In this document: one piece after another, positions 1 through 16,942 of the stretch
Position numbering within the stretch: position 1 is the first letter of the stretch
Layout of the letters: each line of letters opens with the position of its first letter
Origin: an uncultured Acidobacteriota bacterium
GTDB lineage: Bacteria; Acidobacteriota; Thermoanaerobaculia; Multivoradales; SZUA-115
Length of the DNA: 64,000 nt
NCBI GenBank assembly: GCA_963805975.1
Contig: CAWDVR010000001.1
Coordinates: 1,120,001 to 1,184,000, forward strand
Direction: 5' to 3'
Program-made: the position numbers and the translations under genes
The notes under the pieces: model-generated
Databases searched by the model: none
What the model saw: only the letters and a program-made list of their open reading frames with translations
Told to the model about the DNA's origin: nothing

Positions 1-1205
1 ATCGAACAGCGCCCGGTCGTAGATCCACAGGCCGCGCAGCCCGTCGCCCTCCGGCCAGACGTGGAGCTCGAGGTCGAACCGCGTCCAGCGCACCTCAGGG
101 ACCACCCGCGAGATCGCCACCTCCGCCGCCGGCAGCGTCGGGCTGGGCGGCATCTGGTACGCGAACACCACCTGGAAGAACGGGTTGCGGGAGAGGCTGC
201 GAGCCGGGGCCAGCTCCTCGACCAGCTTGTCGAAGCCGAGATCCTGGTGGGCGTAGGCGCCGAGGGCGGCGGACTTCACCCGCTCGATGAGTCGGCTGAA
301 CGTGGGCTCACCGGTGAGATCGCCCACCATCACCAGGCTGTTGACGAAGAGACCGATCAGGTCCTCGATCTCGAGCCGGTCGCGCCCCGCGACCGGCGAA
401 CCGACCGCCACTCGCTCCTGCCCGCCGGCCCGCGCCAGCCAGGCGAGGAAGGCCGCGAGGAGGGTCATCGCCGGCGTCGCGCCGGCGCGCCGCCCGAGGG
501 CGCGGAGGGGGCCGAAGAGGTCCGGCGGCAGATCGGCGTCACAGCTCGCGCCCTGGTACGCGGGATGCGTCGGCCGCGCCCGGTCGGTCGCGAGACCGAG
601 CGGCGGCAGCTCGCCGAGCGCCTGGCGCCAGAACTCGAGGTGGGGAGCGATCGCCTCCCCGTGCTGCCATTGCCGCTGCCAGACCGCGTAGTCGGCATAG
701 CGGGCCGGCAGCTCGGCGAGACGCGGCGGACGGCCTTCGCAGCCCGCGGCGTAGAGCTCCGCGATCTCGCGGTGCAGGATGGCGAGAGAGGTGCCGTCCG
801 AGACGATGTGGTGGTGGGTGAGGAGGAGATGATGCTCGCTCGCCCCGAGGCGGAGCAGCCACGGCCGGAAGAGGGGGCCTCGCACAAGGTCGAAAGACCG
901 CTCCGCCTCCTGACGGGCGAGCTGGCGCGCCGCTGCCAGGCGCTTGCCCCCAGCGAGCCCGGCGAGATCGACGACCGGCAGGTCCAGGTGGCCGGGCGAC
1001 TGCACCACTTGGGCGGGCCGGCCGCCGGGGGCCGGGAAGACCGTGCGCAGGACATCGTGGCGGCGGACGATCTCCCGCAGAGCCAGGCCGAGCCCCCGCG
1101 GATCCAGCTCGCCCTGCAGCTCGAGGGCGAACGGGGTGTTGTAGAACGGGTTGTCCGGCACCAGCTGCTGCAGGAACCACAGGCGCTGCTGGGCGAACGA
1201 AAGGG
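1..1205 (-). other. NRPS module 4 condensation domain (LCL-type), continues out of window
   Basis: PLSFAQQRLWFLQQLVPDNPFYN..RHDVLRT..THHHIVSDGTS..IGLFVNSLVM..NPFFQV. Confidence 0.85.
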
Positions 1206-4200
1206 GGGCCGCGGCACCATGGCTCGCCGGACCGGCGAGGCCAGCCACCAGCGGTGGCGGCGGTGATCCATGATCGCGGGCGAGGGCCGCCTGGAGGCAG
1301 CGGGCGACCCCGGCGACCGTCGGCGCCGCGAACACGTCGGCGAGCGGCAGCTCGACCTGGAAGACGTCGCGCAAGCGGGCGAGGGCGCGGGCGAAGAGCA
1401 GCGAATGGGCCCCGAGGTCGAAGAAGTCGTCGGCGACGCCGAGCCGGGAGACGCCGAGGGTCTCGCTCCAGATCTCGACCAGGATCTCCTCGAGGCCGCT
1501 CCTGGGAGCGAGGAGGCCGGCCGCCGGCCGCTCAGCGGCGTCTTGCCGCGCGGAGCTGCCGGCGCGGAACACCTCTGCGGTCCGCAGCGCCAGGGCGGTG
1601 CGGTCCACCTTGCCGTGGCGGGTGAGCGGCAGAGCGTCGAGGAAGACGAAGAACGAAGGCACCAGGTGGGCGGGCAGCAGGCGTCCGAGGCGCCGGCGGA
1701 GGAGGGCGGCGTCGAGCTCGTCCTCCGAGCCCGGCGCGCGCACCACATAGGCCACGAGATGGCGGTCCTCGTCCGCCATCTCGTGCACCACCACTGCCGC
1801 TTGCGCGACACCCGGCTGGGCCGCCAGGGTCACCTCGACCTCGCCCGGCTCGACGCGGAAGCCGCGGACCTTCACCTGCTGGTCGAGCCGGCCGAGGAAC
1901 TCCAAGGTGCCGTCGGCGCGGAAGCGGGCGCGGTCGCCGCTGCGATAGAGCCGGCCGGGACCCAGAGGGTCGGGCACGAAACGCTCCGCCGTCCAGCCGG
2001 GCCGGGCGAAGTAGCCGCGGGCGAGGCCGCTTCCGCCGATGCACAGCTCGCCGGGAACGCCGATCGGCACCGGGCGGCCACGGCGGTCGAGCAGCACGAC
2101 GCGGGTATCGCCGATCGGCCGGCCGATCGGGATGGGCTGGTCGGGGTCGCCCCCGCCCGGTCCCGTCATCGCGTGACAGGCGGCGAAGGTGGTGCTCTCG
2201 GTCGGGCCGTAGCCGTTGACCAGCCGGGTGCCCGGCAGAGCCGCGAGGGCGGCTCGCACGTGCGCGGGCGAAAGCACGTCGCCGCCCGCCAGAAGCTCCT
2301 CGACGCCCGCCAGGGCCGGCAGCTCCGAGTCGACCATCTGGTGAAAGAGCCCCGCGGTCAGCCACAGGCGGTTGACCCGGTGCCGCACGATCGCCGCCCC
2401 GATCTCGGCGAGGGACAGCCGGCCGGCCGGCGGCAGCACCAGCCGGCCGCCTTGCAGCAAGGTACCCCAGATCTCCAGGGTGGCGGCGTCGAAGGCGGTC
2501 GGCGCGAGCTGCAGGAAGACGGCCCGGGAGGAGAGCGTCATGAACCCGCCGTGCCGCACCAGCCGCACCACGCCGCGATGGGGCACGGCGACCCCCTTGG
2601 GCTCGCCGGTCGAGCCGGATGTGAACATCACGTAGGCGAGGTGATCCTCCGTCGTCGCCGTGACCGGCGGCGTGCCGGGCTGCCTGGCGAGGAGCGGATC
2701 GTCGAGGTCGACGTGCGGGCCGTGATCCGCGATGGCCAGGTCCGCGCCGGCAGTCAGACGCGCGGACCTCTCGCCGAGCACGAGCCCGCCCGGCGGTACG
2801 ACGAGGCGGAGCATGCGAGCGAGGCGCTCCGGCGGGGAGGCGGGATCGAGGGGCACGTAGGCGCCACCCGCCGCGACGACGCCGAGGAAAGCGGTGATCG
2901 CGGCGGGCGATCGCTCGCGGCAGACCGCGACCGGCGTGTCCGGGCCGACGCCGAGCTGCCGCAGGCGGTGGGCGAGCCGGTGGGCGCGTAGCGCGAGGCC
3001 CTGGTAGCTCAGCAGCTCGCCTTCGCCGTCCACGGCGATGGCTTCCGGCCGTGCCGCCGCCTGCTCGGCAAACAGCTCGTGGAGGGTGCCCGCGACGGGC
3101 TGGGAGGGGGCCTTGTCGCTCCACTCGAGGGTCAGCTGCTGGCGCTCGGCGGCCGACAAGGGCAGGAGACGATCGGGCTCGGCGAGCGGCCGGGACACCA
3201 TCTCGGCCAGGGCCGCGACGTGGTAGCCCAGCCAGCGGGCGATCGCCGTCGCCTCGAACCGGCCGGCGTCGTAGCGCAGGTCGAGGACGATCTCGCCGCT
3301 CGTCGGGTCGAGGTGGACGTTGACGATCAGCGGCAGGTCGGTCGCTTCGTGGAACACCCCGCCGCGGATCCCGATGCCGCTGCCGGCAAGCTCCCGGTAG
3401 ACGTGGAAGTGGACGAAGTTGAACGCCACGCCGAACAGCGGGCGGCCACGGAGGCGGCGCAGTTCGGCGAGCGGGAAGCGGCGATGCGGGTGCTGCTCGC
3501 GCTCGGCTGCGGCGCAGCGCCGGACGAGGTCCAGCCAGGTGTCTCGCCCGGCCTCGAGGTGGAGCGAGGTCTCGACCTGGAACGGCAGGGTGTTGAGGAA
3601 GAGGCCGAGGACGCGGTCGCCGTCCGTGGTCTCCTGCCGGCCGTTCCACACCAGACCGGTGGTCGGACGGGAGGTGCCGCAGAGGGTGGCGAGGGCCTGC
3701 AGGTGGGCTGCCAGGAGGACGCTCTTGACCGGCGCTCCGGCCCGGGCGGCGACTGCCGGCACACCTGCCGCGACCGTCGCGGGGAGCGACCGGCGCAGCT
3801 GGCGCACGGCGGGTGGCCGCGACCGCTCCCGCGCGGCGAGCCCCCACGCGGTGAGACTGGGCAGCTCGGCCGGCTCGTCGGCGGTCGCGGCCAGCCAGAA
3901 GCGCCGGCTCGCGGTGGCGGCGAGGCTGCGGCCCTCGAGAGCGACGTAATCGCGGAAAGTGGCTCGCGGCGGTGCCGGCGCCAGCGAGCTCGCCCCGGTC
4001 GCCAGGGCCGACCAGGTGGCGAGCAGCTCGGTGAGCAGCGAGGCGACGCTCCAGCCGTCGAGGATCACGTGATGGAAGCTCAAGGCGAGCTGGAGGCAGG
4101 TAGCGCTGCGCAAGTGGACGTGGCAGCGCAGGAGCGGCGGCCGGCCGAGATCGAAGGGGCGCGCCTTCTCTCGCTCCACCCAGGCCAGGACGGCGGCCGT

Positions 4201-7200
4201 CTGGTCCGCAGGAGCGAGCCGCCGGAGGTCGGTCACCGCGAACGGCATGCGCGCCCGGCTGTGCACCCGTTGCAGCGGCTCGGCGAAGCGCGCGAGGTCG
4301 AACGAGCTGCGCAGCACCGCGTGGCGCTCGACGATCCGCTCCCAGGCCAGCACCAGCGCCGCGAGGGAGAGGCCTTCGACCGCGATCTCGTAGCTGAAGA
4401 CGTCGTGGTAGAGGCCGAGCCCGGGCGCGTCACCCGCCTTCGCCACCATTCCCCACTGCAAGCGAGTCAGGGGATAGGCGTCCTCGACGTCGCCTGGCAG
4501 GACGCGGCGCTCGGCGGCGCTCAGCAGAGCGAAGGGCAGACTGGGCTCCTCCTCGTGGGTGCCCCCGCCGGCCAGGCGCGCCAGCTCGCGCACGACGGGA
4601 TGCCGGAAGAGGTCTGCGACGGTGAAGGAGAGGCCGCGAGCCGCGGCGCGGGAACGTACCTGCAGGCTGTGGATCGAGTCCCCACCGAGGTCGAAGAAGC
4701 TGTCGCCAGCGCTCACCCGAGCCCGGCCCAGCACTTCGCCGAAGATCGCCGCGAGAGTTTCCTCGGCCTCGTTCGCGGCCGGCACGAAGGGCCGCTCGGC
4801 GGGCAGCTCTGATATGAGGGCGGGAGCCTGGCGGACGAGCGCTGCGCGATCGACCTTGCCGTGCAGGGTGAGGGGCAGGGCTGCGACCGCCAGGTAGGCG
4901 GCCGGCAGCATGGCCTCCGGCAGCAGGCGGCGCAGCGCCGCCCGCAGCTCGCTGGCCGGCGCTGCCGGGCCCGGCGCCTGGGGCACCACGAAGGCGATGA
5001 GCTGACTGCCGCTCTCCGCATGCGGGAGAGCGATCACCACCGCCTCGCCCACTCCCGGCTGCCGGCGCAGGGCGGCTTCGATCTCGCCGAGCTCGATGCG
5101 GTGGCCTCGAACCTTGACCTGGTTGTCACGCCGGCCGAGGTAGAGGAGGCTGCCGTCCGGGCGGTGGCGGGCGAGGTCGCCGCTGCGGTAGAGCCGCTCT
5201 CCGGGCAGGCCGGCGTGGCCATGGGGACGGAAGCGTGCGGCCGTCTCGGCGGGCCGGCCCCAATAACCGCGGGCGAGCCCGGCGCCACCGACCCAGATCT
5301 CCCCCGGTGTCCCGATCGGCACCGGCTCGCCCCGGCCGTCGAGGAGGTGGACCTCGAGGTCGGCGAGCGGGCGGCCGATCGGGCTGCCGCCGCCCGCGTG
5401 GAGCGGCTCGAGGGTCACGTGGACGGTGGTCTCGGTGATCCCATAGAGATTGAGCAGCCGGGGACGGGCGGTGCCGAAGCGGTCGAACCAGCTCGCCAGC
5501 GATCCGGCATCGAGCGCCTCGCCGCCGAAGATCACCCGCCGCAGCCGCCCGCTGCCCGCCGCCGCCGCGACGGCTACCTCCTGCAGGCCGCGGAAGGCGG
5601 AGGGCGTCTGGTTGAGCACCGTCACGCCCTCGCGCAGCAGCAAGCCGTGCAGCTCGTCCGGCACCCGGCCGACCGCCGGGGGCACCAAGACCAGCCGCCC
5701 GCCGTGGGCGAGCGGCCCCCAGATCTCCCACACCGAGAAGTCGAAAGTGTGGGCGTGGAACAGGCACCAGACGTCGTCCGGCCCGAACCCCACACCGTCG
5801 CGGGTGACGGCGAAGAGGCGCAGCAGATTGTGGTGGGAGACCGCCACCGCCTTCGGCCGGCCGGTCGAGCCCGAGGTGAAGATCACGTAGGCGATCTGCT
5901 CGCCGAGGATCGGCGGCGCCGCGAGCGCCTCCCCTGTCGTGCCCGCTGGGTCGTAGCCGTCGAGATCGATCGGCTCGACTCCCGGCGGTGGCTCGAGCGG
6001 CGAGGAGCCGTGGACGAGGAGGAGCGTGGCGCCCACCTCGCGCAGCATGCGGTGGGAGCGCTCCGGCGGGTGGGCCGGGTCGAGGGGAAGGTAGAAGCCG
6101 CCAGCCTCGAGGACGGCGAGGATCGCGACGATCAGAGCGGGCGAGCGCTCGAGCCCGAGGCCGACGGGCGTCTCCGTGGTCACCCCCAGCGCGCGGAGCC
6201 GGCGGGCGAGGTGGCTCGCCCGGCGTCGCAGCTCGCCGTAGGAGATCTGCTCGGCCCCGCCACCCAGCGCGCCGCCGACCAGGGCTACGGCATCCGGCTG
6301 CCGCTCCGCCACCCGGGCGAAGAGCTGGTGGATCGCCGTCACCGAGTCCGCGTCCCGAGCGCGCACCGCCGGGTTCCACTCGTGGAGGACCTGCTGCCGT
6401 TCGGCCGCGCTCCAGGGTAGGAAGCGCTCGTGCCTGGCCGCCGGGTCCGCCGCCATCGCCGCCAGGGTCCGCCGGTAGCACGCCGACCAGCGCTCGATCT
6501 CCGTGTCGTCGAACCGGCGGCGATCGTGAGCGAGGAAGAGCCCCGCCTGCCGGCCGTCGGGCTCGAGATGGAAGTTGAGCAGCAGGGGTAGATCAGTCGC
6601 CTCGACGAAACGACTGTCCAGGATCGCCAGCTCGCCCTCGTGCCGCGCGAGGTCGCGGTAGACGTAGTAGTGGAAGAAGTTGAACGCAGTGTCGAAGAGC
6701 GGCTGGCCGTCCCGCAGGCGGCGTATCTCGGCCATCGGATAGCGGCGGTGGGGCAGCACCTCGCGCTCGTGCGCGAGGGTTCGCCGGACGAGGTCCACCC
6801 AGCTGCCGGCCGAGAGGGACAACCGGAAAGGGACCGTGTTGAGGAAGAGGCCGAGAATGCGGTCGCCGTCCTCCTCCTCCGGACGGCCGTGAAGCACCAA
6901 CCCGGTGGTCACCCGCCCAGCGCCGCAGAGCCGGCCGAGGACCGCGAGGTGGGCGGCGAGGAGGACACTCTTGAGAGGCGCCTCCGCCTGGGCGGCGAGG
7001 CGGCGCAGGCCGGCGGTGATCTCCGGCGAGAAGGCGAGCGAACGCTGCTCGACCTCGCGTGGAGCGGCCGCTACCGGCGCAGTCCCGCCGGCCAGCCAGG
7101 GCGGAGCCTCGTCGGTCTCTCCCTGCCAGAAGACGCGGTGCTCCCCGGCGGCCAGAACCGCCTGCTCGAGGGCGACGAAATCCCGAAAGTGACCCTGCGG

Positions 7201-10200
7201 CGCGGCCGGCAGGGCTGCTAGCTCGTCCTGCCGGGCAAGATAGGTGGCGAGAAGCTCGGTGACCAGGGACGCCAGGCTCCAGCCGTCGAGGATGGCGTGA
7301 TGGAAGCTCAGAGTGAGCTGGAAACGGCCGTCTCCCCGCGGGTGCGCCTGGCAGCGCAGGAGGGGCGGCCGCGCGAGGTCGAACGGCCGTCGTTTCTCGC
7401 TCGCGATGGCAGCCGCGATCGCACTTTCCTGGGCGATGGCCGGCAGGCCACGCAGGTCGGTCACCGCCAGGGGCACCACGGCACGCCAGTGCACCCGTTG
7501 CAGCGGCTCGCCGAAGCTCCCGAGGTCGAAGGAGGTCCGCAGGGTCGGATGCCGGCGGACGACGACTTCGAGGCTCCGTCGCAGCCGCCGGGCATCGAAG
7601 TCGCCGCGCAGATGGTAGGTGAAGACGTCGTGGTAGAGGCCGGCCTCGCCCTCCGCCTCGCCGTGAAAGAGCATGCCGGCCTGGAGCCGGGTCAGGGGAT
7701 AGGCGTCCTCGACATCGGCCGGAAGTCGTTGCCGGACCTCGGCCGGGACGAGCGCGAAGGGCCTCGGGCGAGGGACGGTACCGCCAGGAACCGCCTCGCC
7801 CGCCAGCTGGGCGAGATCCGCGATCACCGGATGGCGGAAGATCTGCTCCAGGGTGAGCGCGAGCCCGACCGCCGCGGCGCGCGCGCGGATCTGCAGGCCG
7901 CGGATCGAGTCCCCACCGAGATCGAAGAAGCTGTCGAGGACGCCCACCTCCCGGTGCCCCAGGACCGCCGCGAAGATCTCCGCCAGCCGCTTCTCGGCCG
8001 GCGTTTCCGGCGCCTGGTACGGCCGGCCCCGGCGGGCTGCCGCATGAGCCTCGCCGCCACGGAGCGCATGGTGGGCGAGGGCGGCACGGTCGAGCTTGCC
8101 ATTCACCGTCAGCGGCATGGCGGCCAGCACCACGAAGCTCGCCGGGATCATCGACGGCGGCAGGATCGCGGCGAGGTGGCGGCGCAGGGCCGGAGCGCTG
8201 AGGGCCGGATTCAAGATGCCGGAGGACGCTCCGGACGCCGGGTCCGCCGGTGTCACGACCGCGACGAGCCGGGCCGGCTCGTCGCGGTCCCGGTGGACCA
8301 GGACGGCGGCTTCCCCGACCGCCGGGCAGCGGGCGAGGGCGGCCTCGACCTCGCCGGTCTCGATGCGGAAGCCGCGGATCTTCACCTGCTGGTCGGTGCG
8401 GCCGAGGTACTCCAGACGGCCATCCGCCCGGCGGCGGGCGAGGTCGCCGCTGCGGTAGAGCCGGGCGCCGGCGTCCCGACTCCAGGGATGGGGCAGGAAG
8501 CGGCTGGCGGACTCGGCGGGCCGCTGCCAATAGCCACGGGCGAGCCCGGCGCCCCCGACGTGGATCTCCCCGGTGACCCCCAACCCTACCGGCTCGCCGC
8601 GGCGATCGAGGAGGTAGGTCTCCCAGGCCGGCAGGGGCCGGCCGATCGGACTCGCCGGGGAGCAGCTCTCTATCTCCGGGCGGCCGATCCGCTGGCAGGT
8701 CACGTGGACCGTGGTCTCGGTGATGCCGTAGAGATTGAAGAGCCGCGGCTCACGATCGCCGAAGCGCTCGATCCATGGCCGCAGGCTTTCTGGCGTCAGG
8801 GCCTCGCCGCCGAAGACGATCTGCCGGAGCGGCGGCTGGGCCGGAGCCGTGAGGGCCACGTCTTGGTAGCTGCGAAACGCCGACGGGGTCTGGCTGAGCA
8901 CCGTCACTCTTTCGCGCGTGAGCAGCCCGTGGAGCTCCTCCGGCTCGCGGCTCACCCAATAGGGGACCACGACGAGCCGGCCCCCCTGCGCGAGCGCTCC
9001 CCAGAGCTCCCACACCGAGAAGTCGAAGCTCATCGCATGGAAGAAGCTCCAGACGTCGTCGCGACCGAAGCCCACGTGGGCCTGGGACTCCGCCAAGAGG
9101 CGGACGACGCTCGCGTGGGTGACCGCGACGCCCTTGGGCCAGCCCGTCGAGCCCGAGGTGTAGAGCAGGTAGGCGAGTCGCTGCGGCAGCTCCGGCGTCA
9201 GGTCCCAGGGCTGGGCCGCGGTGGCGATCACCGGTTCGCGGCCCAGCTCCGGCGCCAGGTCCATGGGGAAGGAGCCGTCCGTCACCAGCGCGACCGGCGC
9301 GGCGTCGGCGAGCACCCACGCCAGGCGCTCGCGGGGCAGCTCGGGGTCGAGAGGCACGTAGAAACCGCCAGCGGCGAGGATGCCGAGGATCCCCGCCACC
9401 ATCTCTTCGCCGCGGCCAGCGCAGAGGGCAACCGCTTTCTCCTCCGCCACGCCTGCAGCGCGGAGCCGGCCGGCGAGGTTCCAGGCCTGCCGTGCGAGCT
9501 CGCCGTAGCTCAGCTGGCGGCCGTCGCAGACGACGGCCACGGCATCCGGTCGCTCGCTCACCCGGGCCGCGAAAAGCGCATCGAGAGTCCCTCCCGCGGT
9601 GGAGCTGCCCGGCTCGTGCTCCTCGTGGATGAGCTGGTGCCGCTCGGCGCGCGCCATGAGCGGCAGGCTCCCCACGGCCTGGCTCGGGTCCGCCACCACG
9701 CCCGCGAGGAGCCTCTCGAGCTGTCGCGCCCAGCGCTCGATCGTGGTGTGGTCGAAGAGGTCGCTGCGATACTCGAAGACCAAGCGGAGACCGTCCCCGA
9801 TCCGCGCCGTCTGCACGACGAGATCGAAGGGGCTGTGGTCGCGCGGCAGGATGTCCCCCTCCATGCGCACCTCGCCGTCCGCACCAGGACGCAGGAGGCG
9901 ATGCTGCACCATCACCACAGAGTAGAGGTTGGCGAGGGCCGAGATCCCTGGGCGGGCAATCAGCCCGCCGACCAGCTCGTTGGGAAAGTCCTGATGCCGG
10001 GCGAGGGCCGCGACGGCCGTGCTCAGTCGCCCGAGACTGTCCAGGAAGGGCTGGCCGGCGGACCAGTGAGTCGGCAGAGGCAGCGTGTTGGCGAAGTAGC
10101 CCAAGACGCGCTCGTGGAGCCCCTCGGGATGGGAGCGGCCGTGGAAAGGCACTCCGAGAATTACTTCGCGCTCGCCTGAAACACGGTGGAGAAACGCCGC

Positions 10201-11025
10201 GAAAGAGGCCAGCAGGACCCGAAAGAGACTCGTCTCGCTCTGCCGCTTCAGCTCTTCGAGGCCAGCCACCAGCGTCGGTCGCAGCTGCCACTCGACATCT
10301 GCCGCCGCACCGACCGGGGTTGCCGGGCGAGCTCGGTCCGTCGGCAGCGCGAGCTGCGTGGGCGATGAGCCCAGGGTCTCGCGGAAGAACCGGGCATGGG
10401 CCTCATAGGTGTCGCTGCCGATCGCGAGCCGCTCCCGTTGCCAGGCGGTGAAGCTCGGGTAGGGGAGCCCAGGCTCGAGCTCACCGCCGTGATAAATCGC
10501 CGACAGATCCTCCACGAAGATCTGGGCCGCCGTGGCATCCATGACGAGATGGTGGGCGAGCAGCAGCAGGCGGTGCTCCAGTGCGGAGAGCCGGAGCAGG
10601 AGGAAGCGGTAAAGCGGCCCGGCTTCGAGGTCGAACGGCTGGCGCAAGGGAGCCAAGAGGCAGGCGGAGATGGCCCGAGAGCCTGGCGACCGAGGAAGGC
10701 AGGAGAAGTCGACACAGGGGCAGCGAAGCGGGGGCGTGGCTTCGACCCGCTGGACCGGATCGCCCGCGATCGGCTCGAAAACGAGGCGGAGGGCCTCGTG
10801 GTGCTGGACGAGCCGGCGAAGCGCCTGGATCAACCGGCCCGGAGCGAGCGGACCGCTCAGCCGGATGCTGTAGCCGAGGTTGTAGAGGGACGTCCCCGGC
10901 GCGAGCTGCTCCATGGCCCAGAGAGCTGTCTGGCCATAGGAGAGAGAGACGGCCTCACGCCTGGACGACGTCCCCATCGTTCCATTCCGTGCACCGCGAG
11001 CCCCAGGCTTCCCGCGCGCTCCCAT
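1..11025 (-). CDS. Multimodular non-ribosomal peptide synthetase, 3'-partial (>3,675 aa): C-A-T-C-A-T-C-A-T-C...
   Basis: ATG at 11025 (alternative 10977). Absent from the ORF track, consistent with no in-frame stop before base 1; the long + strand shadow ORFs all sit in one antisense frame. Manual translation gives C motifs HHLVMDA (~10545), HHAILDG (~7295), HHVILDG (~4065), HHIVSDG (~805); A3 motifs YLLYTSGSTGWPKG, YVIFTSGSTGRPKA, YVMFTSGSTGEPKG; PCP motifs FFDLGGDSI (~7915, ~4685) and FFDLGAHSL (~1410). Confidence 0.95.
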   Translation of the reverse strand, partial: MGARGKPGARGARNGTMGTSSRREAVSLSYGQTALWAMEQLAPGTSLYNLGYSIRLSGPLAPGRLIQALRRLVQHHEALRLVFEPIAGDPVQRVEATPPLRCPCVDFSCLPRSPGSRAISACLLAPLRQPFDLEAGPLYRFLLLRLSALEHRLLLLAHHLVMDATAAQIFVEDLSAIYHGGELEPGLPYPSFTAWQRERLAIGSDTYEAHARFFRETLGSSPTQLALPTDRARPATPVGAAADVEWQLRPTLVAGLEELKRQSETSLFRVLLASFAAFLHRVSGEREVILGVPFHGRSHPEGLHERVLGYFANTLPLPTHWSAGQPFLDSLGRLSTAVAALARHQDFPNELVGGLIARPGISALANLYSVVMVQHRLLRPGADGEVRMEGDILPRDHSPFDLVVQTARIGDGLRLVFEYRSDLFDHTTIERWARQLERLLAGVVADPSQAVGSLPLMARAERHQLIHEEHEPGSSTAGGTLDALFAARVSERPDAVAVVCDGRQLSYGELARQAWNLAGRLRAAGVAEEKAVALCAGRGEEMVAGILGILAAGGFYVPLDPELPRERLAWVLADAAPVALVTDGSFPMDLAPELGREPVIATAAQPWDLTPELPQRLAYLLYTSGSTGWPKGVAVTHASVVRLLAESQAHVGFGRDDVWSFFHAMSFDFSVWELWGALAQGGRLVVVPYWVSREPEELHGLLTRERVTVLSQTPSAFRSYQDVALTAPAQPPLRQIVFGGEALTPESLRPWIERFGDREPRLFNLYGITETTVHVTCQRIGRPEIESCSPASPIGRPLPAWETYLLDRRGEPVGLGVTGEIHVGGAGLARGYWQRPAESASRFLPHPWSRDAGARLYRSGDLARRRADGRLEYLGRTDQQVKIRGFRIETGEVEAALARCPAVGEAAVLVHRDRDEPARLVAVVTPADPASGASSGILNPALSAPALRRHLAAILPPSMIPASFVVLAAMPLTVNGKLDRAALAHHALRGGEAHAAARRGRPYQAPETPAEKRLAEIFAAVLGHREVGVLDSFFDLGGDSIRGLQIRARAAAVGLALTLEQIFRHPVIADLAQLAGEAVPGGTVPRPRPFALVPAEVRQRLPADVEDAYPLTRLQAGMLFHGEAEGEAGLYHDVFTYHLRGDFDARRLRRSLEVVVRRHPTLRTSFDLGSFGEPLQRVHWRAVVPLAVTDLRGLPAIAQESAIAAAIASEKRRPFDLARPPLLRCQAHPRGDGRFQLTLSFHHAILDGWSLASLVTELLATYLARQDELAALPAAPQGHFRDFVALEQAVLAAGEHRVFWQGETDEAPPWLAGGTAPVAAAPREVEQRSLAFSPEITAGLRRLAAQAEAPLKSVLLAAHLAVLGRLCGAGRVTTGLVLHGRPEEEDGDRILGLFLNTVPFRLSLSAGSWVDLVRRTLAHEREVLPHRRYPMAEIRRLRDGQPLFDTAFNFFHYYVYRDLARHEGELAILDSRFVEATDLPLLLNFHLEPDGRQAGLFLAHDRRRFDDTEIERWSACYRRTLAAMAADPAARHERFLPWSAAERQQVLHEWNPAVRARDADSVTAIHQLFARVAERQPDAVALVGGALGGGAEQISYGELRRRASHLARRLRALGVTTETPVGLGLERSPALIVAILAVLEAGGFYLPLDPAHPPERSHRMLREVGATLLLVHGSSPLEPPPGVEPIDLDGYDPAGTTGEALAAPPILGEQIAYVIFTSGSTGRPKAVAVSHHNLLRLFAVTRDGVGFGPDDVWCLFHAHTFDFSVWEIWGPLAHGGRLVLVPPAVGRVPDELHGLLLREGVTVLNQTPSAFRGLQEVAVAAAAGSGRLRRVIFGGEALDAGSLASWFDRFGTARPRLLNLYGITETTVHVTLEPLHAGGGSPIGRPLADLEVHLLDGRGEPVPIGTPGEIWVGGAGLARGYWGRPAETAARFRPHGHAGLPGERLYRSGDLARHRPDGSLLYLGRRDNQVKVRGHRIELGEIEAALRRQPGVGEAVVIALPHAESGSQLIAFVVPQAPGPAAPASELRAALRRLLPEAMLPAAYLAVAALPLTLHGKVDRAALVRQAPALISELPAERPFVPAANEAEETLAAIFGEVLGRARVSAGDSFFDLGGDSIHSLQVRSRAAARGLSFTVADLFRHPVVRELARLAGGGTHEEEPSLPFALLSAAERRVLPGDVEDAYPLTRLQWGMVAKAGDAPGLGLYHDVFSYEIAVEGLSLAALVLAWERIVERHAVLRSSFDLARFAEPLQRVHSRARMPFAVTDLRRLAPADQTAAVLAWVEREKARPFDLGRPPLLRCHVHLRSATCLQLALSFHHVILDGWSVASLLTELLATWSALATGASSLAPAPPRATFRDYVALEGRSLAATASRRFWLAATADEPAELPSLTAWGLAARERSRPPAVRQLRRSLPATVAAGVPAVAARAGAPVKSVLLAAHLQALATLCGTSRPTTGLVWNGRQETTDGDRVLGLFLNTLPFQVETSLHLEAGRDTWLDLVRRCAAAEREQHPHRRFPLAELRRLRGRPLFGVAFNFVHFHVYRELAGSGIGIRGGVFHEATDLPLIVNVHLDPTSGEIVLDLRYDAGRFEATAIARWLGYHVAALAEMVSRPLAEPDRLLPLSAAERQQLTLEWSDKAPSQPVAGTLHELFAEQAAARPEAIAVDGEGELLSYQGLALRAHRLAHRLRQLGVGPDTPVAVCRERSPAAITAFLGVVAAGGAYVPLDPASPPERLARMLRLVVPPGGLVLGERSARLTAGADLAIADHGPHVDLDDPLLARQPGTPPVTATTEDHLAYVMFTSGSTGEPKGVAVPHRGVVRLVRHGGFMTLSSRAVFLQLAPTAFDAATLEIWGTLLQGGRLVLPPAGRLSLAEIGAAIVRHRVNRLWLTAGLFHQMVDSELPALAGVEELLAGGDVLSPAHVRAALAALPGTRLVNGYGPTESTTFAACHAMTGPGGGDPDQPIPIGRPIGDTRVVLLDRRGRPVPIGVPGELCIGGSGLARGYFARPGWTAERFVPDPLGPGRLYRSGDRARFRADGTLEFLGRLDQQVKVRGFRVEPGEVEVTLAAQPGVAQAAVVVHEMADEDRHLVAYVVRAPGSEDELDAALLRRRLGRLLPAHLVPSFFVFLDALPLTRHGKVDRTALALRTAEVFRAGSSARQDAAERPAAGLLAPRSGLEEILVEIWSETLGVSRLGVADDFFDLGAHSLLFARALARLRDVFQVELPLADVFAAPTVAGVARCLQAALARDHGSPPPPLVAGLAGPASHGAAAPLSFAQQRLWFLQQLVPDNPFYNTPFALELQGELDPRGLGLALREIVRRHDVLRTVFPAPGGRPAQVVQSPGHLDLPVVDLAGLAGGKRLAAARQLARQEAERSFDLVRGPLFRPWLLRLGASEHHLLLTHHHIVSDGTSLAILHREIAELYAAGCEGRPPRLAELPARYADYAVWQRQWQHGEAIAPHLEFWRQALGELPPLGLATDRARPTHPAYQGASCDADLPPDLFGPLRALGRRAGATPAMTLLAAFLAWLARAGGQERVAVGSPVAGRDRLEIEDLIGLFVNSLVMVGDLTGEPTFSRLIERVKSAALGAYAHQDLGFDKLVEELAPARSLSRNPFFQVVFAYQMPPSPTLPAAEVAISRVVPEVRWTRFDLELHVWPEGDGLRGLWIYDRALFD
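1290..4490 (-). other. NRPS module 3: modAA-like C, Val-type A domain, PCP (GAHSL)
   Basis: DAYPLTRLQWGMV..YHDVF..EPLQRVH..SFHHVILDGWS..FNFVHFHVY. A core FDAATLE/LWLTAG/LLAGGD/NGYGPTESTTFA gives code DALWLGGTFK (Val/aliphatic). Confidence 0.8.
4580..7710 (-). other. NRPS module 2: modAA-like (dehydrating) C, Thr-type A domain, PCP (GGDSI)
   Basis: DAYPLTRLQAGMLFH..YHDVF..EPLQRVH..SFHHAILDGWS..FNFFHYYVY; A code DFWNIGLVHK. Boundaries approximate. Confidence 0.8.
7800..10950 (-). other. NRPS module 1: N-terminal (starter-position) C, Thr-type A domain, PCP (GGDSI)
   Basis: LSYGQTALW..YNL, HHLVMDA. A-domain core FDFSVWE/LSQTPS/IVFGGE/NLYGITETTVHVT gives specificity code DFWSVGLVHK, close to the Thr code DFWNIGMVHK. 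Boundaries approximate. Confidence 0.8.
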
Positions 11026-11040
11026 CCCCTGGCTTCGAGC

Positions 11041-12105
11041 CTACTTCGAGGCCCTGCGGGCCCGCTTGGGCGGGGCTTTCACTTCGGGCTCGAACCAGCC
11101 CACCGAGTCAAGCCAGGCCAGGGTGCCAGTCAACCAGGGTGGATTACCGGTTCCGCCGCCGGTGGCGATCGTCCGCAGCCGCTCCTTGATCACCTTGCCT
11201 GTGCCTTCCGGCGGCATCGTGCTGTCCTCGAGGTCGAAATCGAGCAACTCGCCGCCAAGCTTCATCGGCGGGTTCAGCCGCATGAAGTTCTCGCCGAGGA
11301 TCGACTTGCATTGGAAGTCGACCGCCATCATTCCGGACTCGAAGAAGGCTTCCACCAGGGCGAACGGCCGGCGCAGATCGAGCAACCACTGTTTCCATCC
11401 CCAGGGTGCGTTCTCCACGTTGAGACCTGAGCCCGTGAGGCCTGTGCCGACGGAGAGCAGCCGGATCTCGGTCGGTCTCATCGGCTCTCCCTTGCCTCCA
11501 AGCGGGGTGCTCAATGCCTGGGCGAGCGCGCACATGCTCGGGTTGTTGGCGTAGAGCCCGCCGTCGACGAAGCCCTGGTAGATCGGGAAGAAAATCGGTC
11601 CGGCGCTCGTCCGCAAGGCGACGTCGAGGGCCGACTGGCCGAGGTCGGGCTCCCCCTTGCCGCCGAAGTTGTTGAACACTTTCGGCTTCCAGGTCGGCAC
11701 GCCACCCTTCGCCTCGCCCATCAGATCGAAGGTCGGGATCACTACGTACTGCCCTTGCGCAGCCAGGCTGCCGAGGGTGTTCGTGCCCAGCAGGGGAGTG
11801 AGGCTGTCCTTCAGGTAAGCATTGCTGCTGATCGAGAACCAGCCGCTGATCGTCGCGAAGAGCGAGCGCAGGGGCCTTCCGGCGCTCGGGCTCTGCGACC
11901 ACAACGAGATCGACTGCTGCAGGCCGGACGCCCGGTCGGCTGCCGTCATCATAAGCAACGCGTTGATCCCGCCGGCGGAGGTGCCGGCAAAGGCGTCCAC
12001 TTGGGCTAGGAACTCGGGCCTCTTGCGCTGGATCTGCTCGATCGCGTAGAGGGAAAAGAGTGAAAGGATTCCTCCGCCGTCCATTGCCAGGATGTTGAAG
12101 GCCAT
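11041..12105 (-). CDS. Patatin-like phospholipase/acyl hydrolase
   Basis: MDGGG glycine block, GTSAG nucleophile elbow, SAGPIFF, VDGGLYANNP catalytic Asp motif. RBS AAAGGGAG. Stop lies about 15 bp before the NRPS ATG. Confidence 0.9.
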   Translation of the reverse strand: MAFNILAMDGGGILSLFSLYAIEQIQRKRPEFLAQVDAFAGTSAGGINALLMMTAADRASGLQQSISLWSQSPSAGRPLRSLFATISGWFSISSNAYLKDSLTPLLGTNTLGSLAAQGQYVVIPTFDLMGEAKGGVPTWKPKVFNNFGGKGEPDLGQSALDVALRTSAGPIFFPIYQGFVDGGLYANNPSMCALAQALSTPLGGKGEPMRPTEIRLLSVGTGLTGSGLNVENAPWGWKQWLLDLRRPFALVEAFFESGMMAVDFQCKSILGENFMRLNPPMKLGGELLDFDLEDSTMPPEGTGKVIKERLRTIATGGGTGNPPWLTGTLAWLDSVGWFEPEVKAPPKRARRASK

Positions 12106-12220
12106 GGTCTGGTTCTCCCTTTCTGCCGGTGAAAAACCTTCGCCGTGAACACAATTTCCCTGACCGAGCCTGCGAAGGGGCTCGTAAGCTCGAGCTCACA
12201 CGGTCCCTTGCACAAGCTTC

Positions 12221-12463
12221 CTACTCGACCTTGACCTTCTTTGAAGCCGGCTGCGGCTTCGCCTCCGCCGCCAGGTTGTCGATCGCGGCCTGGACGACCG
12301 AGGTATAGCCCTGGAGGATCGTGAGCCCCGCCTGCAGATAGGCGGCACGCAAGGTCTTGCTGGCGCTCGTTAAATCCGCGGTCTGCGGGGCGAGCTTGGA
12401 GAGCTCGGCGATCTGCTGCATCACGGTGCCAAGAATGTCGCTCGGACCACCCACCTGGCTCAT
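12221..12463 (-). CDS. 80-aa amphipathic helical protein with C-terminal KKVKVE tail
   Basis: Strong RBS GAGGAGGAG, 12 bp after the arsA-like stop; GC3-biased codons; periodic hydrophobic pattern with no TM segment. Confidence 0.8.
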   Translation of the reverse strand: MSQVGGPSDILGTVMQQIAELSKLAPQTADLTSASKTLRAAYLQAGLTILQGYTSVVQAAIDNLAAEAKPQPASKKVKVE

Positions 12464-12475
12464 GGTGCTCCTCCT

Positions 12476-13651
12476 CTACTTGAAGTCGATGCTCAGCTCG
12501 TTGCCTTCCATCCGGGCCTGCGTCGTCTTGAATTGGGCCAGGGAGCGCGGCAGGGCAACGTGGCGCTTGAAGCTGGAGATACGGACAATCAGCTCGTGCT
12601 CGTTACGCGTTAGGACAATCTCGTCCTTTTCGACGAAAGGCAGGACCATTTTCAGCCGGTAGATGCCATCCGCCTTTTCGAAACTGAACGGCGGAGCGTC
12701 GACCTGCCGTGCCGCCGGATCCTGGTCGCCGAACAGGACTCGTCCGACCTCGGCCAAGCGATCGATGCCCACCACCTCGTCGCCGAACAGAGGCACCCTG
12801 GAGACCGGGATCGGGTCGAAGTACTTCTCGATCTGAGCGGCGTAGTTCGCGTGGGTGCCCACCCAGCCCGCGAGGTATCCCTCGGCCGAGCTGATCAAGC
12901 GATTGATGATCACGCCGTCCGTATTCATACCGTACATGCAGAAGTACGTGTAGGCTCTCTGTGTCTCACGGACAACCATCTTCTCGGCGTTGGTCACCAG
13001 GCGCACCGAGGTGACCTCCGGGTCCTTCAGCAGCTCGTCGATCCCTTCGAGCCGCCCGAAGGCGTTCTTCAGCGAGTCGAAGTAGCTGTCCTGTGGCAAG
13101 GGATAGTCGATGAGCTTGCTGGCGATCGGACGCGCCACCTTCAGAATCGCGCGATCCGTCTTGAATCGCTTGCGAACATACCAGTCAATCGATGTCATCA
13201 GATTGACGAAGCGCAACGATTCGCTAGTCGGTGGACAATCGACGACGATCAAGTCGTAAGTATCTTCGCGGTAATGCTGATTGATCGCCATCAACGCGAT
13301 CAGATCCTCCATACCGGGCATGATGGCCACTTCCTCGGCTACGATGCCACTCATCCCCATGGAGGAGAAAAAAGCCCCGATGTAGTGATAGAGGTCTCCC
13401 CATTGCCGCTCGATCTGCTCTTGAACGTCGACCTCCTGAAGGTCGAGGTTTTCCGCCATGCGCAACGGAAGGCCCCCATGCTGATCGAACAGGCTGCAAT
13501 CGAGGTTGAAGGAATCCGAGAGACTGTGAGCGAGATCGAAAGAAAGGACGAGGGTTCGATGGCCCCTTCGGGCCGCAGCAACGGCTGTCGCCGCAGCGAT
13601 CGTGGTCTTGCCGACACCCCCCTTGCCGGAGACGAGGATCACGCGCTTCAC
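12476..13651 (-). CDS. ArsA/TRC40/Get3-family ATPase with C-terminal HSP20-like (alpha-crystallin) domain, Get3d-like
   Basis: Deviant Walker A GKGGVGKTT, DLAHSLSDS, PGMED, DCPPT (DTAPT equivalent), EKMVVRET. Single ATPase domain plus beta-rich tail YRLKMVLPFVEKDEIVLTRNEHELIVRISSFKRHVALP..ARMEGNELSIDF. Confidence 0.9.
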   Translation of the reverse strand: MKRVILVSGKGGVGKTTIAAATAVAAARRGHRTLVLSFDLAHSLSDSFNLDCSLFDQHGGLPLRMAENLDLQEVDVQEQIERQWGDLYHYIGAFFSSMGMSGIVAEEVAIMPGMEDLIALMAINQHYREDTYDLIVVDCPPTSESLRFVNLMTSIDWYVRKRFKTDRAILKVARPIASKLIDYPLPQDSYFDSLKNAFGRLEGIDELLKDPEVTSVRLVTNAEKMVVRETQRAYTYFCMYGMNTDGVIINRLISSAEGYLAGWVGTHANYAAQIEKYFDPIPVSRVPLFGDEVVGIDRLAEVGRVLFGDQDPAARQVDAPPFSFEKADGIYRLKMVLPFVEKDEIVLTRNEHELIVRISSFKRHVALPRSLAQFKTTQARMEGNELSIDFK

Positions 13652-14455: not shown

Positions 14456-14523
14456 GTTTGGAGGCGAAATCTCATCAGTGCTATTTCTTGCGCTGACCGC
14501 CGAATTTGACGGAGGAGATCGAC

Positions 14524-16440
14524 ATGTACAGGATCACTCTGATCAACATGCCCTTCTCGAACCTGAGTCTGCCGAGCCTGGCTCTGACTCAGCTCAAGGC
14601 GGTCTTAGAGCGCGATCTCGATGACCAAATACGGGTGCGTATTCTTTATCTGAATCACGATTTCTCGCACTATCTCGGGCTCGATCTCTATTTCCGTATC
14701 ACGCATGCCGTCGAGTCGAACAACTCCGGGCTCGGTGACTGGTTGTTTCGTCAGGTCGCCTTTCCTCTCGCGAGCGACAACATCCAGCAATACTTCCAGC
14801 GTTACTATCCCCAGCAAGAAGGTGGTCTCGACGTTCTCAAGGGAAAGATCCTAGCCAAGCGGGTGCGTCTCGGACAGTTTCTCGATCGGCTGATCGGCAA
14901 CTATCAGCTGGATCAGGAGGATCTAGTCGGTTTTACTTCAATGTTCGCCCAGAACGTCGCAAGCTTGGCTATGGCGCGGAAGATCAAGGACCGGAATCCA
15001 CGATGCGTCACCGTTATGGGTGGCGCCAATTGCGAAGCACCGATGGGAGCCGAGCTCGCGGCTCACGTCGAAGCGATGGACTTCATCTTCTCCGGACCCG
15101 CGCTGGTGAGTTTTCCGCAATTCGTCCGTTATCAGATCCGTGGCGAAGTCGAGGCTTGTCGAACTCTGCAGGGTGTTTTTTGTGGCGCGAACCTCGGCTC
15201 CAAACACCTCGAGGGATCTGGGGCTATCGGGGCCGAGCTGCCGATGAACATCCCGGTGCCGCTCGACTATGACGAGTTTCTGGCGCTGTTTGAGAAGAAC
15301 TTTCCTGGTGGCGACCTTCGACCCTGTCTCACCTTCGAGACCTCGCGAGGTTGCTGGTGGGGAGAGCGTTCGCATTGTACGTTCTGTGGTCTCAACGGTG
15401 GCACGATGGCTTTCCGCCGGATGCCCGCCGACGACGCAGTGGAGCTGCTGAATGGGCTCTTCTTACGTTACGGAGATCGCTGTCCTCGCTACGAAGCAGT
15501 GGACAACATCATGCCGATCGATTACATCAAGGACGTTTTTCCTCGCCTGAAGCCACCCCCGGAAGCCACGATCTTTTACGAGATCAAAGCCAACATGAAA
15601 GAGGAAGAGCTGGAGATCCTGAAGCGGGGTGGAGTCAACGAGGTCCAGCCCGGCATCGAGTCTCTTTCGACTTCCACCTTGAAGCTTATGCGGAAGGGCA
15701 CCACGAGCTTCCAGAACATTCGTTTCCTGAAAGGTTGCCTATCCGCCAACGTACGGCCGATCTGGAATCTTTTGATCGGTTTTCCCGGGGAGGAAGCTGG
15801 TGTATACGAGAAGTATCTAGCGGACCTTCCGCTACTCTTTCATCTGATGCCGCCGACCGGTGCCTTTCCCGTTCGTTTCGATCGCTATAGCCCATACTTC
15901 ACCCACTCGGATAGCTTCCGGCTAAAGCTCTCACCCTATGATTTCTACGAGATGGTTTACCCCTTCGGAACCGACTCGCTCTACAACCTTGCCTATTACT
16001 TCGAAGACCGGAACTACAACGCGAGATATATTGATAACCTGATCCTGTGGAAAGAGAAGCTCAACACGGTTGTCGATCAATGGCGTGCGCTGTGGAAGTC
16101 CGACAGCGTGCTTCCGAAGCCCGAGCTGTATCTCAAGCTGGCCGCTGACTCGTGCCCTGCCGTGGTCTTCGATTCACGAAACGGCCAGAGTGGAACGGAG
16201 CACGAGATCAGCGATCTAGGCCTCCGAGTCCTCGATCTGCTTCACGTCCGAGGGATGAGGCTGACGGATCTCGAGAGGTCCGTCGATGCGACTCCGGATG
16301 ACCTTGCGGGGGAGATCGACGGACTGCGTCGATCGGGGATCCTTTTCGAGGAGGATGGTCGCTGGATGAGCCTGGTTATCGACCGTGCGTCGCAGCTCGG
16401 ACGGATGGAGAGCTATCAGTCGCTGCCGACTCTGGTTTGA
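14524..16440 (+). CDS. B12-dependent radical SAM C-methyltransferase, RiPP-maturation (PoyB/PoyC-like) type
   Basis: LINMPF..PSLAL start, B12-binding GFTSMFAQ..MGGANC, Cx7Cx2C motif ETSRGCWWGERSHCTFCGLNG, QPGIES, WNLLIGFPGE, RFDRYSPY. RBS GGAGGAG before ATG 14524. Confidence 0.9.
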   Translation: MYRITLINMPFSNLSLPSLALTQLKAVLERDLDDQIRVRILYLNHDFSHYLGLDLYFRITHAVESNNSGLGDWLFRQVAFPLASDNIQQYFQRYYPQQEGGLDVLKGKILAKRVRLGQFLDRLIGNYQLDQEDLVGFTSMFAQNVASLAMARKIKDRNPRCVTVMGGANCEAPMGAELAAHVEAMDFIFSGPALVSFPQFVRYQIRGEVEACRTLQGVFCGANLGSKHLEGSGAIGAELPMNIPVPLDYDEFLALFEKNFPGGDLRPCLTFETSRGCWWGERSHCTFCGLNGGTMAFRRMPADDAVELLNGLFLRYGDRCPRYEAVDNIMPIDYIKDVFPRLKPPPEATIFYEIKANMKEEELEILKRGGVNEVQPGIESLSTSTLKLMRKGTTSFQNIRFLKGCLSANVRPIWNLLIGFPGEEAGVYEKYLADLPLLFHLMPPTGAFPVRFDRYSPYFTHSDSFRLKLSPYDFYEMVYPFGTDSLYNLAYYFEDRNYNARYIDNLILWKEKLNTVVDQWRALWKSDSVLPKPELYLKLAADSCPAVVFDSRNGQSGTEHEISDLGLRVLDLLHVRGMRLTDLERSVDATPDDLAGEIDGLRRSGILFEEDGRWMSLVIDRASQLGRMESYQSLPTLV

Positions 16441-16907
16441 GGCTCCGTTCGTCATCGCCGTGCTGCGCTCGGTTCCCCAGGCCCTCGAACCGCTTCACGG
16501 CCCAACTCGCAGCACTCGAGCGAAGCAAAGAGCGCTTGATCGAGGTGTACGTCTTCCAGCAGGTCATCGACGAAGGGACCTTCCGCTCCCACCTCGTAAG
16601 CTGAATGAGGACATAGCTTTAGCCAAGGCTCATGCTGCAGAGATCGAGACCGAGCCGACTGATCTCGAATCGCTCTGGGAGTTTGGTGAGCATGTAGCGA
16701 CTCACGCCGGCAGCCTCTGGCAGGAGGCTCCGCTCGAACAGAAAACTGAGCCTCCAAAGGTTGATTTCCTGACAGGACATTACGTACGGCACGGAGGGAT
16801 TTCAAACAGCGCCAACCAGCCTAATTTTCAACGACTTACGTGGGCCGAAGGACGTAAAAACGGCGATGGTATCCCCAACGGGATTCGAACCCGTGTTATC
16901 GCCTTGA
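16441..16907 (+). pseudogene. C-terminal remnant of a large serine recombinase/integrase overlapping the tRNA 3' half
   Basis: Joined frames read RFTAQLAALERSKERLIEVYVFQQVIDEGTFRSHL/KLNEDIALAK..DLESLWEFGEHVATHAGSLWQEAPLEQK/LSLQRLIS*QDITYGTEGFQTAPTSLIFNDL..MVSPTGFEPVLSP*. Frameshifts at ~16596 and ~16745, TGA at 16770. Family assigned from recalled similarity. Confidence 0.7.
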
Positions 16908-16942
16908 AAGGGCGGTGTCCTAGGCCTCTAGACGATGGGGAC
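16867..16942 (-). tRNA. tRNA-Glu (anticodon TTC)
   Basis: GTCCCCATCGTCTAGAGGCCTAGGACACCGCCCTTTCAAGGCGATAACACGGGTTCGAATCCCGTTGGGGATACCA: 76 nt, cloverleaf, GTTCGAATC T-loop, encoded CCA. Confidence 0.97.

Follow-up and report, generated by a model that had tools for sequence, protein, structure and literature searches.

To our knowledge, no clients are known for the bacterial Get3 homologues that carry an α-crystallin domain. The closest described members are the Group 6 Get3 homologues (Farkas et al. 2019, PMC6593721) and Get3d (Barlow et al. 2023, PMC10248533), which, in the portions of these papers drawn on here, combine a single Get3 domain and an α-crystallin tail with intact P-loop and switch motifs, no CxxC and the same overall fold, and for which the same portions mention no downstream partner, patatin or link to a biosynthetic gene cluster (BGC). 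Such a setting can be found in the cluster table for thiamyxin of Myxococcaceae strain MCy9487, which lists a hypothetical protein of 107 amino acids (aa; Orf3), an adjacent 396-aa Get3/ArsA ATPase (Orf4) and a patatin (Orf6), all unassigned (PMC10100342). Here we examine a window (that is, the whole stretch of 64,000 nucleotides at positions 1,120,001 to 1,184,000 of contig CAWDVR010000001.1, assembly GCA_963805975.1) from an uncultured Acidobacteriota bacterium of the SZUA-115 lineage, in which genes for an ATPase of this kind, an 80-aa protein and a patatin stand ahead of a giant hybrid of non-ribosomal peptide synthetase (NRPS) and polyketide synthase (PKS). These are known families in a recurring arrangement without an assigned function, and the arrangement is real and conserved. 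In what follows, G000 denotes the source genome, other G-numbers genomes of the same order and L-numbers loci that were examined.

Components of the cassette

The initial annotation of the window had described four co-oriented genes with short gaps, the last an NRPS starting with a condensation (C) domain, and open reading frames (ORFs) and Pfam matches bear this out: ATPase, 80-aa gene, patatin and NRPS/PKS follow one another on the minus strand throughout, with intergenic gaps of 12, 115 and 15 bp. A consensus scan of the minus strand between 10500 and 17100 found no terminator-like sites, and a single operon extending from the ATPase to the NRPS is plausible.

The ATPase gene (12476..13651, minus strand, GTG start) encodes 391 aa that match ArsA_ATPase (PF02374, 1.7e-82) and, at residues 328-390 (12482..12670, minus strand), ArsA_HSP20 (PF17886, 1.7e-18), the latter forming an α-crystallin (HSP20-like) domain with seven strands in the structural model. 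The protein scores 211.9 bits against TIGR00345 (cut-off 135), and its model matches NosGet3d (8egk) over the full length with template-modelling (TM) scores of 0.61-0.63. Like the Group 6 proteins, it has one Get3 domain followed by the C-terminal α-crystallin domain, a nucleotide site (GKGGxGKT, switch I Asp) without CxxC (cysteines occur only at 52, 139 and 238) and a helical region, corresponding to the hydrophobic groove or TRC40 insert, that aligns continuously with archaeal Get3 (3zq6 and 3ug6), although this region is of low confidence in the model. GKGGVGKT, D39, H42 and S43 are invariant across 32 homologues. Get3d in the strict sense (the NosAFP equivalog) is a different matter, as the protein reaches only 121.8 of the 325 bits demanded by NF050088, is only 22-24% identical to NosGet3d and belongs to a non-photosynthetic host. 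With the arsenical pump ATPase ArsA it shares the fold and Walker A, but it is a single domain with a crystallin tail, scores 64.7 bits against a cut-off of 650 and has no ars genes among its neighbours, and the initial judgement that it is not an arsenite pump therefore holds. Cys139 (window about 13235-13237) lies in a DCPPT motif, the counterpart of DTAPT in Get3, and is conserved in all 32 aligned homologues.

The 80-aa gene (12221..12463, minus strand), preceded by AGGAGG, has copies in G020, G511 and G523. Its product matched no Pfam or NCBIfam family and, in a single-sequence search, matched only itself. A profile built from the four syntenic copies and run against 1.84 billion proteins (E<=0.001) retrieved 24 proteins, comprising 23 of 75-100 aa with the same tail and one 894-aa repeat protein, so that the gene is evidently real. 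In the 24 aligned proteins, the C-terminal K-[IV]-x-[IV]-x tail (KKVKVE here; 12224..12241, minus strand) has a nearly invariant K76 and hydrophobic residues at 77 and 79 throughout. The initial annotation had called the protein amphipathic, which does not stand for the single sequence, given that 163 of 1,000 shuffles had an equally high periodicity, and does stand for the family profile (best angle 96-97 degrees, p about 0.015). Two amphipathic helices are predicted, and no transmembrane segment is present (maximum 19-residue hydropathy 1.02). This combination is what a phasin or other lipid-body coat protein would have, being necessary for such a role and not sufficient; homology to the phasin family was not found in Pfam or NCBIfam, and Atlas matches were all under 0.9.

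The pairing of ATPase and tailed partner extends far beyond the present locus. Among 93 distinct loci of crystallin-type ATPases that extend 500 bp or more downstream (many of them kin, a single duplicate having been removed), 73 are followed by a 45-220-aa ORF with a loose [IVL]x[IVL] end, compared with 146 of 2,630 control genes of G000; with the strict K-[IV]-x-[IV] tail, the same procedure gave 69 of 93 and 7 of 2,630. Judged from these sequences, the two genes constitute a widespread generic pair that is far older than its link to BGCs. In small heat-shock proteins, an IxI/V motif similar to this tail docks on crystallin domains, and we suggest that the tail may dock likewise in the α-crystallin domain of the ATPase. 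Barlow et al. 2023 do not settle what that domain does, and their text, as drawn on here, contains no 'IXI' (PMC10248533). Two variants of the pair were noted in passing. Crystallin-type ATPases at L076 (10001-12350), L077 (2943-5270) and L105 occur in tandem without a small partner between them; and in 27 of 27 genomes, which make up one whole family (L008, L057-L063), lepA-lepB-S4/Hsp15-like genes precede the outgroup ATPase, whose partner has CxxxxC.

The third gene (11041..12105, minus strand) encodes a patatin-like acyl hydrolase of 354 aa with a basic C-terminal tail (PF01734, 3.8e-19), modelled with the patatin/CapV fold at a predicted local distance difference test (pLDDT) score of 86.8. 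Its catalytic motifs are intact (GTSAG with Ser43, DGG with Asp181), both residues being invariant in 27 sequences, which makes it a patatin-like hydrolase by motif and fold. The arginine of the usual phospholipase loop, DGGGxRG, is missing and the loop reads DGGGILS (12061..12081, minus strand). In a tree of 125 patatins, the protein falls in a clade of 39 (support 1.0), in which none of 36 readable members has the arginine, compared with 76 of 84 readable sequences outside; several clade members have basic Lys/Ala/Pro-rich tails. The glycine-loop arginine serves the oxyanion/phosphate site, and a patatin without it may act on something other than ordinary phospholipid, or have low activity. 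The CBASS lipases CapV and CapE and plant patatin share the fold and the Ser-Asp dyad, but the present patatin differs from them in lacking the loop arginine and a neighbouring cyclase and in being tied to megasynthases.

Linkage to biosynthetic gene clusters

In a FastTree phylogeny of 207 ATPases (22 near-redundant loci left out), the ATPase belongs to a clade of 129 (support 0.999) that consists of the query, its 119 best database hits, six cluster members and three genome copies, and that is separate from the widespread acidobacterial type. This clade is present in 4 of 300 genomes of the order (G000, G020, G511 and G523, from three families). In all four, the partner follows the ATPase and a co-oriented megasynthase starts 0.4-1.6 kb further on (an NRPS in G000 and G511, a PKS in G020 and G523), with the patatin standing between partner and megasynthase in three. 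The order is ATPase, partner, patatin, PKS (ketosynthase (KS), acyltransferase (AT), ketoreductase, acyl carrier protein) and a luciferase-like monooxygenase in G020; ATPase, partner, patatin and PKS in G523; and ATPase, partner and NRPS C domain in G511. As the downstream enzymes differ among four related genomes, the link has survived megasynthase exchange. By contrast, 47 outgroup ATPase loci (8-21 kb) held no patatins, no C domains and one stand-alone KS about 7 kb away, and such a megasynthase neighbour was recorded for 9 of 3,503 G000 genes. In the genomes read, the enrichment beside NRPS/PKS genes for which the initial annotation proposed a test is thus seen (4 of 4 versus 0 of 47), and the opposite case, a trio mostly away from BGCs, is not. 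From gene neighbourhoods, one clade of these ATPases is tied to biosynthetic clusters.

The patatin follows a parallel pattern. Its search of the 300 genomes returned six matches; all five Arg-less ones abut NRPS/PKS genes, and the one with the arginine does not. In G289 and G308, the Arg-less patatin comes directly after the terminal thioesterase (TE). The G289 locus (L308, 55-11320) reads PKS, flavin halogenase, NRPS-TE and then the patatin, which overlaps the NRPS stop. A function of the patatin as release enzyme was considered and is disfavoured, given that the assembly lines of G000, G289 and G308 end in a thioesterase and thiamyxin has ThiJ.

In wider scans, nearly all matches to the ATPase in genomes, metagenomes and viral contigs were outgroup ATPases, and a tblastn search of plasmids gave four distant ATPases and no patatin. 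Further clade ATPases with readable context amounted to 0 of 15 in one search, and in another none of 76 matches in 401 genomes exceeded about 50% identity. Among described clusters, UYH37515.1 of MCy9487 is thiamyxin Orf4 and lies in the ATPase clade at 55% identity, so that the initial statement that no described NRPS cluster has this trio does not survive. According to its table, the thiamyxin cluster resembles our locus in having a same-clade ATPase, an adjacent hypothetical gene, a patatin and an NRPS-PKS hybrid, and differs in that the genes lie inside and at the end of the cluster rather than as a contiguous head; Orf3 and Orf6 are likened by table entry only (PMC10100342).

ADH04677.1 of the tubulysin producer Cystobacter SBCb004 also falls in the clade. 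Tubulysin orf18 is probably an anion-transporting ATPase, orf17 a small hypothetical protein and orf2 patatin-like, and the tubulysin cluster thus probably holds the same set. A review places tubZ, orf2, orf1, orf17 and orf18 around the tubulysin core in its cluster overview (PMC4495716). The ATPase and patatin accessions are adjacent in two Corallococcus strains and one gene apart by accession number in Niveispirillum, and 5 of 5 further pairs looked up come from contigs of equal length, presumably the same contig each time; the ATPase/patatin set spans at least three phyla. The argyrin cluster paper has neither an ATPase nor a patatin, and no paper was found that treats ATPase, partner and patatin as a recurring unit, although the primary tubulysin papers or supplements may hold a function.

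The megasynthase and the flanks of the cassette

The window contains the 5' part of the megasynthase (1..11025, minus strand), which continues beyond it. The whole protein of 14,220 aa (G000:C1:1088363-1131025) is built of C-adenylation (A)-thiolation (T) modules with 11 A-domain motifs and ends KS-AT-T-TE. It has no loading module, and its first domain is a C domain with an intact HHxxxD motif (HHLVMD) that, compared within the same protein only, is 31-35% identical to one internal group of C domains and 26-29% to the other. The lipopeptide product put forward in the initial annotation is conjectural. One module has no A domain (C at residue 3405, T at 3797, C at 4001), and two internal repeats are near-identical (C6602/C9782, A6020/A9200). 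Three A domains carry FDFSVWE, and the C domain after each is of a divergent type that has no epimerase motif, a combination that suggests Thr activation and dehydration. A secreted-looking protein with two NBR1-type Ig repeats and a Cys-rich tail (L001, 6476-8320) converges on the NRPS end.

On the other side, a DUF4440/SnoaL-like gene and a B12-type radical SAM C-methyltransferase gene (TIGR03975; 13991..16440, plus strand, GC content 0.56) diverge from the cassette, and are probably tailoring genes of the same cluster. The radical SAM gene itself (14506-16440) belongs to a family named for maturation of ribosomally synthesized and post-translationally modified peptides, has a 67% DNA match in G511 and is probably an NRPS tailoring gene. 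From the patatin to this divergent gene, the GC content is 56-64%, compared with 70% for the genome, and the low-GC block ends near a tRNA-Glu gene (16867..16942, minus strand). The same-genus genome G439 (93% complete) is syntenic only beyond window position 16485, and a BGC-clade ATPase was not found in it; a search for a duplicated tRNA-Glu end (that is, an att-site duplication) found none.

Possible roles at a lipid surface

Tentatively, we favour a reading in which the cassette, a recurring accessory unit of NRPS and PKS clusters, acts at a lipid surface. The ATPase would bind the partner by its tail, in the crystallin domain, and by an amphipathic helix, in the client chamber, and deliver it to a membrane or a neutral-lipid body. 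There, cleavage or exchange of acyl esters by the Arg-less patatin might allow an oily product to be parked and released. Beyond what is observed (gene order, family identities, intact catalytic motifs, a conserved partner and clade-specific megasynthase linkage), this presumes co-transcription, partner binding, a lipid compartment and a patatin substrate, and the droplet-and-coat model of the initial annotation is likewise conjectural. Consistent with the favoured reading, wax ester synthase/diacylglycerol acyltransferase (WS/DGAT) is encoded in all four cassette genomes, and G000 has a further Get3-like pair at a separate site (G000:C6:199443-203965; L010, L011, L021, L022). There, two crystallin-less Get3-like ATPases are found together with what we take, from their sequences, to be a PhaR-like regulator and a phasin-like protein, and with a patatin seemingly split over two frames; a WS/DGAT gene lies at C6:82441. 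A polyhydroxyalkanoate role for the cassette was rejected, PhaC_N (which covers class I/II synthases only) being present in none of the four cassette genomes. AtGet3d is described as co-purifying with lipid-sized molecules in its hydrophobic chamber (PMC10248533), and a glycerol ester of thiamyxin is reported in a paper that says the same of tubulysin (PMC10100342). Because glycerol esters coincide in these two products, a more specific and quite doubtful proposal is a glyceride depot for toxic products, in which the finished peptide or polyketide would be attached to a glycerolipid as an ester and kept in a lipid body. The ATPase, via its crystallin domain, would load the partner as the coat of that body, the Arg-less patatin would set the product free, and the glycerol esters would be leftovers of this cycle rather than thioesterase errors.

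Several observations weigh against action at a lipid surface by a dedicated unit. The contrast between carriers and outgroup loci (Fisher p 4e-6) is overstated because the four genomes are kin, and about 115 of the 129 clade ATPases are without readable genomic context. The three genes are not always together: the patatin is missing from the G511 locus and, at E<=1e-25, from that genome (84% complete) as a whole, the Arg-less patatin of G289 and G308 occurs without a BGC-clade ATPase, and the thiamyxin genes lie six genes apart in the published table (PMC10100342). Most outgroup genomes have the ATPase-partner pair without a BGC, so what the pair does biochemically may have no particular tie to natural products. 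The WS/DGAT genes, which were counted only in cassette carriers, are located away from the cassette. In the discussion drawn on here, Barlow et al. consider lipid binding unlikely to be the main function of Get3d (PMC10248533), and the thiamyxin authors, where they report the glycerol ester, ascribe it to thioesterase promiscuity (PMC10100342).

The separation of ATPase and patatin in G511, G289 and G308 would suit a division of labour in which the giant synthetase has the ATPase-partner pair as its protein chaperone, for folding, solubility or membrane tethering, while stalled acyl groups are removed independently by the patatin, acting as a proofreading esterase. The α-crystallin domain and Get3 client chamber are chaperone parts and the pair precedes unrelated megasynthases; yet most of the 21 megasynthases of G000 are without such a cassette, and the model does not need repeated co-occurrence with one patatin clade across three phyla, which leaves it credible but rather unlikely. 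We also regard as unlikely a supply of starter units, in which the patatin, with help from the pair, would take a fatty acyl group from lipid and pass it to the first condensing domain. All four megasynthases behind the cassette begin with C or KS and no loading module, and no acyl-ligase gene was seen among the scanned G000 neighbours, but G511 has the N-terminal C domain without an adjacent patatin, the patatin of G289 and G308 comes after the terminal thioesterase, and, in the cluster descriptions used here, thiamyxin begins with a GNAT module (PMC10100342) and tubulysin with methyl-pipecolate (PMC4495716).

The patchy distribution, absence from the searched G439 genome, lower GC content and adjoining tRNA are what one would expect of a passenger, or a self-protection or export aid, on mobile BGC islands that takes no part in producing or storing the compound. 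The close spacing to NRPS and PKS starts of different kinds, the intact state of the catalytic residues and an active-site change specific to the clade speak instead for selection on the link, and we consider this explanation improbable. Least of all do we expect an anti-phage system in which the ATPase would switch a phospholipase effector of the CapV kind: although CBASS lipases are what the patatin matches best in structure and sequence, it is only 21-23% identical to them, it scores 103.4 bits against the CapV equivalog cut-off of 200, no cyclase occurs among the scanned neighbours and the linkage is to megasynthases.

In summary, the cassette offers three marker families for finding clusters, namely an ATPase clade of its own, the conserved partner and a patatin clade whose active site is altered, and among the genes they point to are accessory genes of drug-relevant myxobacterial clusters (thiamyxin and probably tubulysin) that are still without an assigned role. 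If the cassette does store or release oily products, its inclusion could matter for yields in heterologous expression, and lipid-body biology would be linked to secondary metabolism.

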